Shown: in pieces, positions 11,686 to 15,682 of the stretch | How positions within the stretch are numbered: position 1 is the first letter of the stretch | Layout: the number at the start of each line of letters is the position of its first letter | Assembly: GCA_963677495.2 (NCBI GenBank) | Contig: CAXXOU010000004.1 | Location: forward strand, 256,001 to 320,000 | Direction of reading: 5' to 3' | DNA length: 64,000 nucleotides | DNA from: Candidatus Cloacimonadales bacterium | GTDB taxonomy: Bacteria; Cloacimonadota; Cloacimonadia; Cloacimonadales; JAFGVF01 | The notes under the pieces: generated by a model | Seen by the model: the letters and a program-made list of their open reading frames with translations, nothing else | Database searches by the model: none | What the model was told of the DNA's origin: nothing | Position numbers and translations under genes: made by a program

Positions 11686-13122
11686 TTATACTTTAACCCT
11701 TTTCCAACCACCACCCAAATATACAATAAAACTTAAGATAGAGATAAGGAGATTACTGACTACCATAGCCCAGAATAGGCTGTCATAGCTGTATGGTTTT
11801 ACTATATTTGAGAGTCTATCAAACAGATTGGGCATGAGGTTATATATCACAGGGAACTTCTCGTATATTTTACCTGCTAGAATATAGGTCAAAGGAATTC
11901 TGAAGAGCCAAAGTCTTGAGATGTTTAAAAGCATAGTCGGTCTTGTATACCCTGACCCGTTAAAGACTCCATTAAAGACAAAGACAAAGCTAAAGAGGAA
12001 TGTTGCCAATGATGTTATCTTAAACATCCTCGCACCATGTTTTATGACTTCAGGGTCATTTATGAATAGAGAAATAAGTTCACCACCAAAGAAGAAGATG
12101 ATGGAACAACCAAAAGTCATAATCACAACGATAGTACCTAACGCGTGTAAGACACTCTTCTCAGCTCGGTGAATCTTCCCTGCTCCCAAGTTTTGTCCAA
12201 CAATAGACGATAAAGCATTGCTTAAGCCCATTGATGGCATCATGAAAAAACCTGTGAGTCTATTTCCTAGGGAGAATACACTAATAACCAATGTACCGTA
12301 AGTATTAACGAAACCCTGTAGCAGCAAGAAGCCTAAACTGGTTATAGACTGAGATATCGATGCAGGGATGCTTATACTGATAATTGTCTTTAACAATTTT
12401 GGATTGGGGATAAAGTCTTTTGGGTGTGGAATCAGAATTGGTGCTTTCTTCTTTACATAATAAAAGGCTAAGCCTGCACCTAATACTCTGGAAAATACTG
12501 TTGCCCAAGCAGCTCCCATTATTCCGTATGCCGGTAAGAGTCCAAACCCGAATATGGCAATTGGATCTAAGACTATATTACACGAAACTGATATGAGTGA
12601 GATAACCATTGGAGTAATTGTGTCTCCTAAGCCATGTGAGAAACTCTGATAACTCATAAATATGAACATAAACGCCATCCCAATCATGACAATTTGGATA
12701 TAGCTTATAGCGTCAGCTCTAATCGCTTCGGGAACTTGCATTAACACAACAATATTATCAATAAATAGTAAAGCTACTATTAGAAAGACTAAAGTGAAGA
12801 GAGTAAGTAACAAAACAAACTGTCCGGTCACCAGTTTAATCTTCTCAGATTCATTAGCTCCTTTATACCGAGAAACAAGTGCAGTCCCGGCAACCATGAA
12901 TCCAAACCCGAACGCCATAATGGTGAAAACTATCGGGAAAGCTAATCCGACAACAGCAACTGCTTCCAAAGCATCCGTTGGCATTTTACCCAACCAAAAA
13001 GCGTCAGTCAGATTATAGATTGTCTGAATAAGGTTTGCTAGCATTATTGGGAGAGCAAGCTTAATCAGATTAGATAGTATGGGTCCGTTTGTTAGGTCTT
13101 TACCTTGGTTTTGTTCATTCAT
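11686..13122 (-). CDS. MATE family efflux transporter
   Basis: DLTNGPI...LALPI, YNLTD, NIVLDP, GAAWAT, GQNLGAG; about 12 TM segments. Confidence 0.93.
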   Translation of the reverse strand: MNEQNQGKDLTNGPILSNLIKLALPIMLANLIQTIYNLTDAFWLGKMPTDALEAVAVVGLAFPIVFTIMAFGFGFMVAGTALVSRYKGANESEKIKLVTGQFVLLLTLFTLVFLIVALLFIDNIVVLMQVPEAIRADAISYIQIVMIGMAFMFIFMSYQSFSHGLGDTITPMVISLISVSCNIVLDPIAIFGFGLLPAYGIMGAAWATVFSRVLGAGLAFYYVKKKAPILIPHPKDFIPNPKLLKTIISISIPASISQSITSLGFLLLQGFVNTYGTLVISVFSLGNRLTGFFMMPSMGLSNALSSIVGQNLGAGKIHRAEKSVLHALGTIVVIMTFGCSIIFFFGGELISLFINDPEVIKHGARMFKITSLATFLFSFVFVFNGVFNGSGYTRPTMLLNISRLWLFRIPLTYILAGKIYEKFPVIYNLMPNLFDRLSNIVKPYSYDSLFWAMVVSNLLISILSFIVYLGGGWKRVKV

Positions 13123-13236
13123 GCAGTCACTAAATTATCCTATCAGAACTTGACTATCTTTTTCTTTAACTCATTTAACTGAGTCTGACATTAGTCGCAT
13201 ACCCTATCACGGGTTTACCCGTTGTATATTGACATT

Positions 13237-13405
13237 ATATGATTAAATAACAGGATTTGAAAAAGAATAAGGGAAGATGAACAAGCTATATGACCCGTTG
13301 AGTCCACAAACTCGTTAGCCATGTTTAGCCCATCTTCCACTTAGTCTGAACAGTACATTGGGCATTAAAGCCCGTATTTTACAATGATAGACTACTTGTT
13401 CTTTT
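13237..13405 (+). ncRNA. Predicted IS110 bridge RNA (ends approximate)
   Basis: Two stem-loops with internal loops. GGAAGATG/CATCTTCC encloses ATGACCCGT and CCAT (target guides). TAGTCT/AGACTA encloses ACAGTACAT and ACAATG (donor guides). Confidence 0.85.
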
Positions 13406-13426
13406 ATTTTTGTAAAGGAGAATATT

Positions 13427-14410
13427 ATGAAAAAGAAAGTGATTGGAGTAGATGTATCAATGGAGAAGCTAGATATAGTGATTTACGATGGGAATAAGCA
13501 CAAGCATTCGATAATTGATAATACTCCAAATGCCTTTGAAAGATTCTTAAAGCGATTTGCTTCCGGCTCTGTTCATATATTCATGGAAGCAACTGGTGTC
13601 TATCACATTCAGATTGCTGTTAAAGCTTATGAACTAGGTCATAATATCTATGTAGTTAATCCTCTTGTTATAAAGAGTTTTTCTGATGCTATGATGAGTA
13701 GAGCTAAGACGGATAAAGTAGATGCTAAGATGATTGCTGAATATGGATACAAATGTGATTATAGACCTTTTACTCCATCATCAAAAGCAAGATTAGAGTT
13801 GTTGGAACTATTAAGAGACTATAACTATTTAATAGAAATACAAACCAAGATAACCAATCGTATTCATGCATATAAGCATGGTTTACAAGTGTCTAAAGAT
13901 GCTCAAAAAGTTCATAAATCACTACTTAAAGAGATCAAGAAAAACATTTTCATGCTAAAGAAAGCCATCGAACAAATAGTAGTTAAAAGCTATCACAGGA
14001 TATATAATAAACTTATTGCAATCAAAGGTGTAGGAATTATGACTATTGCAACAGTTATTGCTTTTTATGAAGATTTCACAGATTTTGAGACATCAAAACA
14101 AGCTATTTCTTTTGCTGGTATGAATCCACATATTCGGCAATCGGGAAAAAGTCTTAGGGGACGCGGAAGTATAAGTCGAAAAGGTAGCCCAGAGATTAGG
14201 AGAATGCTATACTTAGCTGCGGGAGTAGCCAGGATACATAATCAGTATTTTCAAGAGTTTTACGTCAGATTAAGAAGTAGAGGTAAAAGTTATAAGCAAG
14301 CAATAGTAGCTGTGGCCAATAAGCTTCTACGCCAGATCTTTGCCGTTGTTAAGTATGACAGAGAATGGATACCTAATTATGCTTCATTAAAAGAACAACT
14401 TGGTGCATAA
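13427..14410 (+). CDS. IS110 family transposase/recombinase
   Basis: IGVDVS, FMEATG and KTDKVDA (DEDD); C-terminal domain with RQSG, ISRKG, AVANKLLR. Confidence 0.96.
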   Translation: MKKKVIGVDVSMEKLDIVIYDGNKHKHSIIDNTPNAFERFLKRFASGSVHIFMEATGVYHIQIAVKAYELGHNIYVVNPLVIKSFSDAMMSRAKTDKVDAKMIAEYGYKCDYRPFTPSSKARLELLELLRDYNYLIEIQTKITNRIHAYKHGLQVSKDAQKVHKSLLKEIKKNIFMLKKAIEQIVVKSYHRIYNKLIAIKGVGIMTIATVIAFYEDFTDFETSKQAISFAGMNPHIRQSGKSLRGRGSISRKGSPEIRRMLYLAAGVARIHNQYFQEFYVRLRSRGKSYKQAIVAVANKLLRQIFAVVKYDREWIPNYASLKEQLGA

Positions 14411-14597
14411 CAATCTGAATGTAATAGTATTGTGGACAAGTATCGTTCGGAGATAACTTATCCACAATCCATGCCTAATGGAGCTCTTCACTTAAGCTCC
14501 AATAGTCGTGGTGTGGAATGTGGGTAAGTTAAGATACTTGCCCATGATGCTATGGAATGTAGTCTGATTTAATATTGTTAAATTATAGAATATTTTA

Positions 14598-14603
14598 TTG
14601 ACG
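14598..14603 (+). promoter_or_regulatory. -35 box of the IS110 circle-junction promoter
   Basis: On circularisation, TTGACG lies exactly 17 bp upstream of TATATT (13225-13230). Confidence 0.8.
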
Positions 14604-14813
14604 TGAGATACAGTACATGGTAAATCCGTGGAAAGATATCAGTTTAGTACTACACATCTGTCCCGATTCTGTTTAAACTCAAACAATTCTGGAAAATAAT
14701 TGACTTATATGCTTAGTAAGAAATACTGACATCAAACGAAAAGATAGGTTTAGGTTTTTTAATGGTGATGAAAAGCAAGATTTTAATTCTCAGTTCTAGA
14801 AGGTTTAATAAAT

Positions 14814-14847
14814 AAAGAGCATTTGTCTACAGACAGATGCTTTTTTT
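14814..14847 (+). terminator. Intrinsic terminator just upstream of nadC
   Basis: GAGCATTTGTCT-AC-AGACAGATGCTT stem followed by a T-run. Confidence 0.7.
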
Positions 14848-14860
14848 ATTGGAGTGAAAT

Positions 14861-15682
14861 ATGAATATCAAAGAGCTTGTACAACTTAGTCTTGATGAAG
14901 ATATATTTACAGGTGATGTAAGTACTGATTACCTTGGGCTGGGTAAAAGTACTGCTACAGCTAAGTTTGTTGTAAAGAAATCCGGTGTAATTTCAGGTCT
15001 TGATGTAGCGAAAACTGCTTTTGAATGTGTAGATACAAATACTGACTTTATTGCTCATGTTTCGGATGGTTCCTTTGTTGAAAAGGGAACAGTTATTGCC
15101 TCAATTACCGGGTTGTCTTCATCACTTCTTAAAGCTGAAAGGGTCGCACTTAATTTTATTCAAAGAATGAGCGGTATCGCAACTTTAACTCATGAGTTTG
15201 TAACTGTTCTGGAGGGGACAGGTTGCAAGATTTTAGATACTAGAAAAACAACTCCTTTACTTCGAGAAGTTCAGAAGTATTCGGTGAGAATGGGTGGTGG
15301 ATTTAATCATCGCTTTGGACTCTATGATATGATTATGCTTAAAGAAAATCATATCCGTGCCGCAGGTTCTATTACAGAAGCTGTTAAACTTGTTAAATTG
15401 AGAAACACTTCCTACAAGATTGAAGTGGAAGTCACGAACTTACAGGAACTCGATGAAGCTGTTTTAGCAGGTGTAGACAGGGTTATGCTAGATAACATGT
15501 CATTAGAACAAATGCGAAAAGCAGTTGAACTGTATAAGGGAACTGTTGAACTGGAAGCATCAGGAAATGTAACTCTAAAAACTGTTAGAGAAATTGGCTT
15601 AACAGGTGTAGATTTTATCTCAAGTGGAGCACTAACTCACTCTTATACTTCACTTGATATCAGTATGTTATTTAATGAATAA
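14861..15682 (+). CDS. nadC: Quinolinate phosphoribosyltransferase
   Basis: AERVALNF, DTRKTTP, NHRFGL, MLKENH, IEVEV, MLDNM, EASG. Confidence 0.96.
   Translation: MNIKELVQLSLDEDIFTGDVSTDYLGLGKSTATAKFVVKKSGVISGLDVAKTAFECVDTNTDFIAHVSDGSFVEKGTVIASITGLSSSLLKAERVALNFIQRMSGIATLTHEFVTVLEGTGCKILDTRKTTPLLREVQKYSVRMGGGFNHRFGLYDMIMLKENHIRAAGSITEAVKLVKLRNTSYKIEVEVTNLQELDEAVLAGVDRVMLDNMSLEQMRKAVELYKGTVELEASGNVTLKTVREIGLTGVDFISSGALTHSYTSLDISMLFNE

Follow-up and report, generated by a model that had tools for sequence, protein, structure and literature searches.

Does the segment at positions 13223–14618 of this stretch of Candidatus Cloacimonadales DNA hold an intact IS110-group insertion sequence (IS), and does that element work as IS621 of Escherichia coli does, guided by a bridge RNA of its own? 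The window analysed is the whole stretch of 64,000 nt, positions 256,001 to 320,000 of contig CAXXOU010000004.1 in assembly GCA_963677495.2. A preliminary description, made from the letters alone, had answered both parts of the question with yes and had pointed to covariation among homologues and to other genomic copies as ways of checking the answer. Our comparative analysis leads to the same view: the element, here called IS-A, is very probably an intact member of the IS110 group that works like IS621 with its own bridge RNA. Sequence comparison establishes its anatomy and boundaries, the conservation of its catalytic residues, structural covariation in its left end, covariation of its guides with its flanks, and purifying selection. 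Because the bridge-RNA mechanism was described in 2024 (PMC11208160, PMC11208158), IS-A would be a new example of a known system.

The ends of IS-A (1396 bp; like all features given below, it lies on the forward strand) are fixed by a second genomic copy. The genome, G000, comprises four contigs and contains four matches to the element: the copy in the window (copy 1), a copy 2 at G000:C2:338143-339538, and two identical copies of a paralogue, IS-B, which is 71% identical to IS-A (58% at the protein level). Copy 2 aligns with 98% identity across exactly positions 1–1396 of the element and is set in flanks unrelated to those of copy 1, so the boundaries, which are the ones originally proposed, are fixed independently. 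With a slash marking the junction, the left side of copy 1 reads TTTACCCGT/TGTATATTGAC, the element starting at 13223, and where copy 1 has TTTACCCGT/TGTAT copy 2 has TCAACCCGT/TGTAT. The right side of copy 1 reads ACAGTACAT/GGTAAATCC, the element ending at 14618, with ACAGTACAT/GGTAAA in copy 1 corresponding to ACAGTACAT/GGTTAA in copy 2. The left target half including the target core, TTTACCC-GT, thus abuts the element at 13214–13222 (TCAACCC-GT in copy 2), the right target half, GGTAAATC, is flank sequence at 14619–14626 (GGTTAAGT in copy 2), and the left donor half including the donor core, ACAGTAC-AT, forms the last 9 nt of the element at 14610–14618.

Both copies of IS-A are without terminal inverted repeats and without target duplication beyond a shared T; a short subterminal inverted repeat, ATACA...TGTAT, can be read around the donor. 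The flanks of copy 2 run on as an 11-bp tandem word (cccgtggttaa cccgtggttta cccgtggtcaa cccgt/ggttaag), which points to simple insertion with duplication of only the shared T. For IS-B, uninterrupted genomic sites consist of the left flank plus the right flank with a single AT. In the sister genome G011, the syntenic MATE-nadC interval is free of any IS; its spacer gives no exact empty site, since it is too diverged and lacks the target word.

The gene of IS-A (13427–14410) encodes a recombinase of 327 amino acids (aa), identified by Pfam, by NCBIfam and by alignment to IS621. It carries PF01548 (DEDD_Tnp_IS110, residues 6–148, E 5.5e-25) followed by PF02371 (Transposase_20, residues 195–279, E 3.8e-22), and scores 206.7 bits, against a cut-off of 140, with the NCBIfam equivalog model NF033542, named "IS110 family RNA-guided transposase". 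The only two relatives with solved structures are the recombinases of ISCro4, the best match (E 5.8e-31), and of IS621 (phmmer, E 1.9e-30, 109.5 bits). Residues D9, E54, D96, D99 and S239-G240 align with D11, E60, D102, D105 and S241-G242 of IS621 (the PDB chain numbering is offset by 2 in this alignment), so all five catalytic residues are present; in IS621, D11, E60, D102, D105 and S241 are reported as essential (Hiraizumi et al. 2024, PMC11208158). Outside G000 the nearest recombinase is 45–48% identical, which bears out in part the earlier remark that the lineage was unexplored, although standard annotation would already name the protein. Eight orthologous elements from related genomes (41–48% protein identity) share the element ends, and further relatives were found at three loci with 30–32% identity in a search of genome contigs.

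Two of the orthologues have peculiarities of their own. L014 (G219:C89:30955-31914) has one in-frame TAG in the orthologous recombinase frame and may be a broken copy. In L018 (G170:C201), the first 16 nt are tandemly duplicated at the left junction (…cat/tgtatattgacatcat/tgtatattgacatcat…), and the left end looks as if the element had inserted beside a remnant of its own end.

The bridge RNA of IS621 is described by Durrant et al. (PMC11208160) as two stem-loops with internal loops, whose 5' sides pair with 8–9 nt of the bottom strand and whose 3' sides pair with 4–7 nt of the top strand. The predicted layout of the IS-A left end agrees with this description, the 5' stem-loop excepted. Positions 13237–13410, folded as RNA, reach −42.1 kcal/mol (z = −3.6, with none of 200 shuffles equally good) and give a weak hairpin on the 5' side and two stem-loops; each of the two contains an inner stem and an internal loop, and a basal stem encloses them. 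The two loops with closing and inner stems that had been recognised by eye are therefore recovered by folding. Covariation was assessed in an alignment of ten distinct left ends, which excludes copy 2 of IS-A and the second copy of IS-B (both identical to sequences already present), L019 (34% identity) and L020 (32%), whose ends were not recognisable, and L005–L007.

On these ten left ends RNAalifold predicts 38 pairs, which span 13264–13402, and 20 of the 38 have changes on both sides. In the target-binding stem-loop (13273–13337, made up of closing stems, an internal loop and an inner stem at 13299–13314), helices 2–4 are 94–100% paired and nine pairs changed on both sides; in the donor-binding stem-loop (13343–13393), helices 5 and 7 are 98–100% paired. 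Over the whole consensus structure 96.5% of cells are paired, compared with 85.6% in shuffles (reached by 0 of 500) and 37–47% when partners are slid. On four of the five measures used in this test, no shuffle out of 500 reached the value of the alignment; the fifth, the count of further pair types, did not discriminate, since 329 of the 500 reached it.

If the left end encodes a bridge RNA, its loops should be readable against the flanks and the ends of each element. The four strings singled out in the preliminary description, ATGACCCGT at 13290–13298, CCAT at 13319–13322, ACAGTACAT at 13350–13358 and TACAATG at 13380–13386, all stand where it placed them. The first of these, the left target guide, has the same sense as the left flank; the corresponding guide of IS621 pairs with the bottom strand (PMC11208160). 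It matches the flank at 7/9 positions in copy 1 of IS-A and 6/9 in copy 2, and among the orthologues at 9/9 in L013 and L014, 8/9 in L021 and 4–7/9 in the others. For the right target guide the position had been read correctly and the extent had not: the guide is TTAGCCAT (13315–13322) rather than CCAT, and with an adjoining handshake dinucleotide GT it occupies 13315–13324, the reverse complement of which, AC-AT-GGCTAA, corresponds to donor positions 6–7, core and right target. Against core plus right target, TTAGCCAT forms five Watson-Crick and two wobble pairs out of eight in copy 1 and six plus two out of eight in copy 2, and the match is 8/8 in IS-B, L009 and L013. CCAT itself needs a U.G wobble to pair with target GTGG; its perfect complement is ATGG, the right junction after insertion.

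In loop 2, the left donor guide ACAGTACAT is identical at 9/9 positions to the last 9 nt of the element (14610–14618). Across 11 element copies this match is 9/9 in eight and 8/9 in three (L015–17), and in L009 and L018 ACAGTACAT is replaced by ATAGTACAT in guide and right end alike. The right donor guide TACAAT, with a handshake dinucleotide GA, occupies 13380–13387; its reverse complement, TC-AT-TGTA, contains the core and the first 4 nt of the left end (6/6). L015–17 have CGTA instead of TGTA at the left end and TGCGAT instead of TACAAT as the guide, a matching change. Of the 11 copies, 8 have a loop-1 handshake dinucleotide identical to donor positions 6–7, and in 9 the dinucleotide of loop 2 is identical to target positions 6–7 (CC in IS-B and L009, TC in the others). 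To judge from these matches, the two bases adjoining each 3' guide behave like the handshake guides that IS621 has beside its 3' guides (PMC11208158). Loop 1, as read from the alignment, tracks the flanks of each element and loop 2 its own ends, handshake dinucleotides included. At non-core positions, cognate guides and flanks match at 6–13 of 13 across the 11 copies, whereas non-cognate combinations of different clades average 4.84/13 (standard deviation 1.91, n = 94, maximum 10); the match of guide and flank in these comparisons exceeds chance.

These co-changes bear on a rival explanation, in which the left-end structure serves only to regulate the transposase, as a leader or terminator, and loops match flanks by coincidence. 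Downstream of the basal stem come a U-rich run and, after it, the ribosome-binding site, so an additional effect of the stem on read-through towards the gene is conceivable, and a search of 12900–14900 against Rfam 15, at E values up to 10, found no family matching the left end. What a leader would leave to coincidence is that the loops co-change with the flanks in independent elements (9/9 plus 8/8 in L013, 8/8 in IS-B and L009), that loop 2 co-changes with the element ends, and that non-cognate controls stay at the low average just given. We consider a leader or terminator alone to be a very improbable account of the left end, and we continue with the reading of it as a putative bridge RNA.

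The sites at which IS-A is found belong to a dispersed repeat. The target word ACCCGTGG occurs 99 times in G000, in 46 clusters, compared with about 27 occurrences expected from composition; several copies are present in 30 of the clusters and both orientations in 23, and the spacing on the same strand is 11 bp in 26 of 30 cases. The arrays are palindromic, with words CCGTGGTTnAC phased at 11 bp and left and right arms oppositely oriented (examples are C1:535261-535363 and C2:188797-188899). From these arrays we conclude that the natural target of IS-A is one word of a repetitive extragenic palindromic (REP)-like repeat of CCGTGGTTnAC units, and both insertions sit in the repeat family that is specified by the guide core ACCCGT. 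IS-B and the same-genus orthologue L009 insert in another dispersed repeat, at GGACCAT/TYGAAAGG. Targeting of extragenic repeats is usual for the IS110 family: IS621 is reported to insert in REP elements (PMC11208160) and ISPpu9 in repetitive extragenic palindromes (PMC12288879).

The surroundings of IS-B are themselves repetitive. At C4:1492752-1498176 (L003/L004) an IS21-like element of 2360 bp lies between its two identical copies, whose flanks are also identical on either side; G000 contains about 17 copies of that IS21-like element at >98% identity, nearly all >99.7%. The region has the appearance of a repeat unit duplicated in tandem and not of two independent insertions of IS-B. We considered whether IS-B targets the ends of the intervening IS21-like element and rejected this, because the target lies in a separate dispersed repeat 144–243 bp away.

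How might the RNA be expressed? Joining the right end of IS-A to its left end would bring a −35 hexamer, TTGACG (14598–14603), to a −10 hexamer, TATATT (13225–13230). Recomputing the spacer gives 17 nt, of which 15 come from the right end and 2 from the left, as had been read before. Sigma-70 junction promoters are predicted at the sequence level in 10/10 elements, with 9–11 of 12 hexamer matches and spacers of 16–18 nt. For the integrated state, we found no promoter for the RNA beyond a weak hybrid of flank and left end (9/12 matches).

Fold, compensatory pairs, guide covariation and recombinase family together uphold the assignment to the bridge RNA architecture of IS621, and the mechanism can be sketched from that system. 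IS-A would excise as a circle, and the joining of its right and left ends would build the sigma-70 promoter TTGACG-17-TATATT, which would drive a bridge RNA of ~170 nt from the left end, roughly 13237–13405. Loop 1 of this RNA would hold the target and loop 2 the joined element ends, ACAGTACAT and TACAAT pairing with the two strands of ACAGTAC-AT-TGTAT, and the 327-aa DEDD/Ser recombinase would exchange strands beside the shared T. The existence of the RNA, circle formation, catalysis and programmability are here argued by analogy with IS621, and "reprogrammable", the word used in the preliminary description, would apply to IS-A on the same grounds.

Several observations weigh against this reading. 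The 5' stem-loop of the IS621 type is weak in IS-A (13243–13260); it is not predicted by RNAalifold and is without covariation support in the alignment, and to this is added the missing Rfam match noted above. The core dinucleotide is AT in both donor and target of IS-B and the eight orthologues, whereas IS-A has a target core GT at both of its sites against a donor core AT, with only the T, next to the expected cut, in common. In IS-A, GT is the core encoded by the left target guide, but AT the one encoded by the donor and by the right target guide (…CCAT); the partners are thus mismatched at the first core base, which the right guide can meet only by a U.G wobble. The handshake of loop 2 fits the target at one of two positions. 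The occupied sites match the guide-encoded 15-mer at 11/15 positions, or at 13/15 if wobbles are allowed, and no site in the whole genome beats 13/15. The target guides had been called fully readable, which slightly overstated the case: they can be located, but the left guide fits at 7/9 and 6/9, the cores differ, and the genome offers 13/15 at best. There are only two copies of IS-A, 2% diverged from each other, so no recent transposition is shown. Among public reads, no RNA run was found to contain the stretch; the four runs that do contain it (one sample, one study), examined as contigs, show no joint, circle junction or empty site, and the loose ends in them are accounted for by sequence flanking copy 2 and by the tail of IS-B.

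Many of these points could be read as signs that the architecture is real but the element retired, its left target guide having drifted (from an AT to a GT core, with one extra base relative to IS-B), so that transposition has become inefficient and the copies are old. The two copies and the 26 differences between them, the GT target core against the AT donor core, the loop-2 handshake at 1/2, and occupied sites at 11/15 in a genome with a maximum of 13/15 would all be expected of such an element. We nevertheless regard retirement as unlikely. The open reading frame is full-length and retains all catalytic residues, and the differences between the copies fall into 14 synonymous, 5 non-synonymous and 7 in the right end, with none in the 204-nt left end (204/204 identical), where an even spread of the 26 would by our own estimate place about 4. 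This pattern indicates continued, purifying selection on both the recombinase gene and the left end, and is what the word "intact" in the original account would lead one to expect. Both insertions lie in the very repeat family that the guide core specifies, and IS621 is reported to have tolerated AT and GT cores, at reduced efficiency and with all partners changed together (PMC11208160).

The mismatched core also leaves a trace of how strands may have been exchanged. In both copies of IS-A the left junction has the G of the target, and the right junction has the A of the donor. By analogy with IS621, whose structures place the cut between T9 and A10 (PMC11208158), this is the outcome expected if the strand that was fixed had been exchanged 3' of the core, on the top strand; the argument draws on two sites.

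The right end of IS-A raises a separate question, about a hairpin that the preliminary description had not noticed. With a left end of 204 nt and a right end of 208 nt, the element departs from the long left and short right ends that mark the IS110 group, a trait that is descriptive and not mechanistic. In seven of the eight orthologues outside G000, 26–31 nt lie between the gene and the end of the element; in the eighth, L018, the right end holds a different hairpin, perfect and 20 bp long. The length of the IS-A right end is due to an inserted hairpin module (14428–14550), recognised from RNA and DNA folds and from homologues in other insertion sequences: the right ends of IS-A and IS-B carry ~180 nt extra, which is mostly this module, and minus the extra sequence IS-A comes to ~1.2 kb. 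Folded as RNA, the right end (14408–14618) reaches −70.1 kcal/mol (z = −5.7), compared with −50.8 for its complement.

So strong a fold in a right end unusually long for the IS110 group, stronger than that of the left end, could suggest that the guide RNA lies here, as in IS1111-type elements with seekRNA, and not in the left end. Against this, all four guides are found in the left end, and reading by eye saw no right-end stretch complementary to target or donor, a systematic scan not having been made. The module is moreover missing from all eight orthologues outside G000, and homologous modules occur in IS3, IS21 and IS6-like elements and in plain intergenic DNA. A guide in the right end is, in our judgement, extremely unlikely, and the left end remains our candidate for the bridge RNA.

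What, then, is the module? It is a long imperfect hairpin of ~125 nt with 3–5 DnaA-box-like words, and its conserved arms read as the DnaA boxes TGTGGATAA and TTATCCACA. In IS-A, a perfect TTATCCACA at 14458–14466 and two words with one mismatch each, at 14431–14439 and 14519–14527, fall within 90 bp. In all five copies tested as DNA, the fold of the sense strand was more stable than that of its complement. The consensus has 32 pairs, of which 7 changed on both sides, G.U pairs are kept in 9–10 of 10 sequences, and a small central hairpin varies with compensating changes. A search of six module loci against Rfam 15 at gathering thresholds gave nothing relevant, and as far as our literature searches reached we found no earlier description of the module.

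Within G000 the module is confined to the four IS110 copies. Homologues were found by BLAST in 13 of 232 genomes of the phylum at E ≤ 0.01 (some matches being short) and by covariance model in 12 of 151 sampled genomes of the phylum. We distinguish 21 loci, of which 19 were examined, two further copies in G003 being left out; L023, L025, L029, L043–L045, L047 and L050 are among them. At 11 of the 21 the module is within or next to a transposase gene. Three of these loci stand for the IS110 copies of G000; the others are at IS3-type rve genes of G011, G007 and G003 (where one of three copies was inspected), at a 473–479-aa DDE gene with sub-threshold similarity to IS6 in G133, G167 and G222, and in the istA–istB interval of IS21-type elements of G194 and G198, there in the opposite orientation. 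The remaining 10 occupy plain intergenic DNA, in two families whose flanks are conserved. That unrelated transposase families share one module points to a function, involving a host factor or RNA, that has been acquired repeatedly by insertion sequences.

One reading would make the module a portable, strand-specific DnaA-box hairpin that was captured by different circle-forming insertion sequences and acts as a single-strand initiation signal like the A site of the ABC primosome. By recruiting DnaA together with helicase and primase, it would help convert a single-stranded or figure-of-eight intermediate into the double-stranded circle that carries the junction promoter. The idea is thinkable because the A site is reported to be a single-stranded DNA hairpin with a DnaA box at which DnaA loads DnaB for priming (Masai et al. 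1990; Masai & Arai 1995, cited in PMC6127211), because IS621 mostly excises a single-stranded circle according to a 2026 preprint, and because in IS3 and IS21 a figure-of-eight joined by a single strand is described as being converted to a duplex circle (PMC3299598). We offer it as a long shot. The antisense orientation in the IS21 elements and the ten loci without transposases speak against any single simple role. Other options are a role as a structure in the 3' untranslated region, in stabilising or processing the transposase mRNA, a roadblock or insulator formed by bound DnaA ahead of the −35 box, and a selfish module that hitch-hikes as ssr9 of ISPpu9 may do; a 2026 preprint reports that IS110 elements can grow by uptake of cargo.

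We rejected the possibility that the module is a chromosomal origin, because dnaA lies elsewhere (in G000 at C1:868604; in G011 at 2.82 Mb, with modules at 0.24 and 0.37 Mb) and the genes neighbouring the module are not dnaA. Just downstream of dnaA in G000, C1:869670-869772 contains four DnaA-box words, two of them perfect; this is likely a replication origin, which suggests that the canonical box is valid in this host. DnaA-box words also occur in G000 in other settings. A dispersed repeat of ~180 bp has an inverted pair of perfect words 3 bp apart (examples are C1:46871-46938, C1:943478-943545 and C4:156710-156777), and the genome as a whole has 154 perfect TTATCCACA words, by a rough estimate several-fold above the expectation from base composition.

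IS-A adds to the known bridge systems a divergent, compact orthologue of 327 aa, a paralogue, and eight relatives with readable guides and flanks. A small clade with paired guides and flanks, an AT core and a long right target guide should be of interest to those who collect bridge recombinases, while existing knowledge is unchanged by it. The value added lies in that pairing, in IS-A as a natural case of differing target and donor cores, and in the unexplained right-end module.

Among known systems, the closest in organisation is IS621 (E. coli, IS110 group; PMC11208160, PMC11208158, PDB 8wt6). As described there, it has in common with IS-A a two-domain DEDD/Ser recombinase with all catalytic residues. 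In both, the guide RNA is assigned to the left end and has two stem-loops with internal loops, along with handshake dinucleotides; the 5' guide, 9 nt long, has the sense of the left half-site, and the 3' guide is the complement of core and right half-site together. Closing the circle rebuilds a promoter in IS621 and would do so in IS-A, and both have a repeated extragenic palindromic target. The donor of IS621 that the preliminary description had quoted is indeed printed in the dDNA oligo of PMC13396178, and 12 of its 14 positions are identical to the donor of IS-A. In contrast to IS621, IS-A has a remote recombinase, a core AT rather than CT, a target core GT against a donor core AT, two target guides that encode different first core bases, a right target guide of 8 nt, a basal stem that closes the whole RNA, an unsupported 5' stem-loop, and a right end of 208 nt that stems from an inserted module; a blastn search of the whole element against complete E. 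coli genomes gave no match.

At the protein level, the best-scoring relative with a solved structure is the bridge recombinase of ISCro4/IS622 (PDB 9t56; bioRxiv 10.1101/2025.05.14.653916), which has the same domain order and a distant sequence. ISPpu9 of Pseudomonas putida with its ssr9 (PMC12288879) resembles IS-A in its extragenic palindromic target and in having an extra non-coding module downstream of the transposase gene. According to that paper ssr9 also exists apart from ISPpu9, whereas the IS-A module is found in G000 only inside the four IS110 copies and recurs in other IS families of related genomes. The A site (PMC6127211) is like the module in being a strand-biased hairpin with canonical DnaA-box words in its stems. 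This is a resemblance only. The A-site hairpin of M13 has a single box, the module 3–5 box-like words in ~125 nt.

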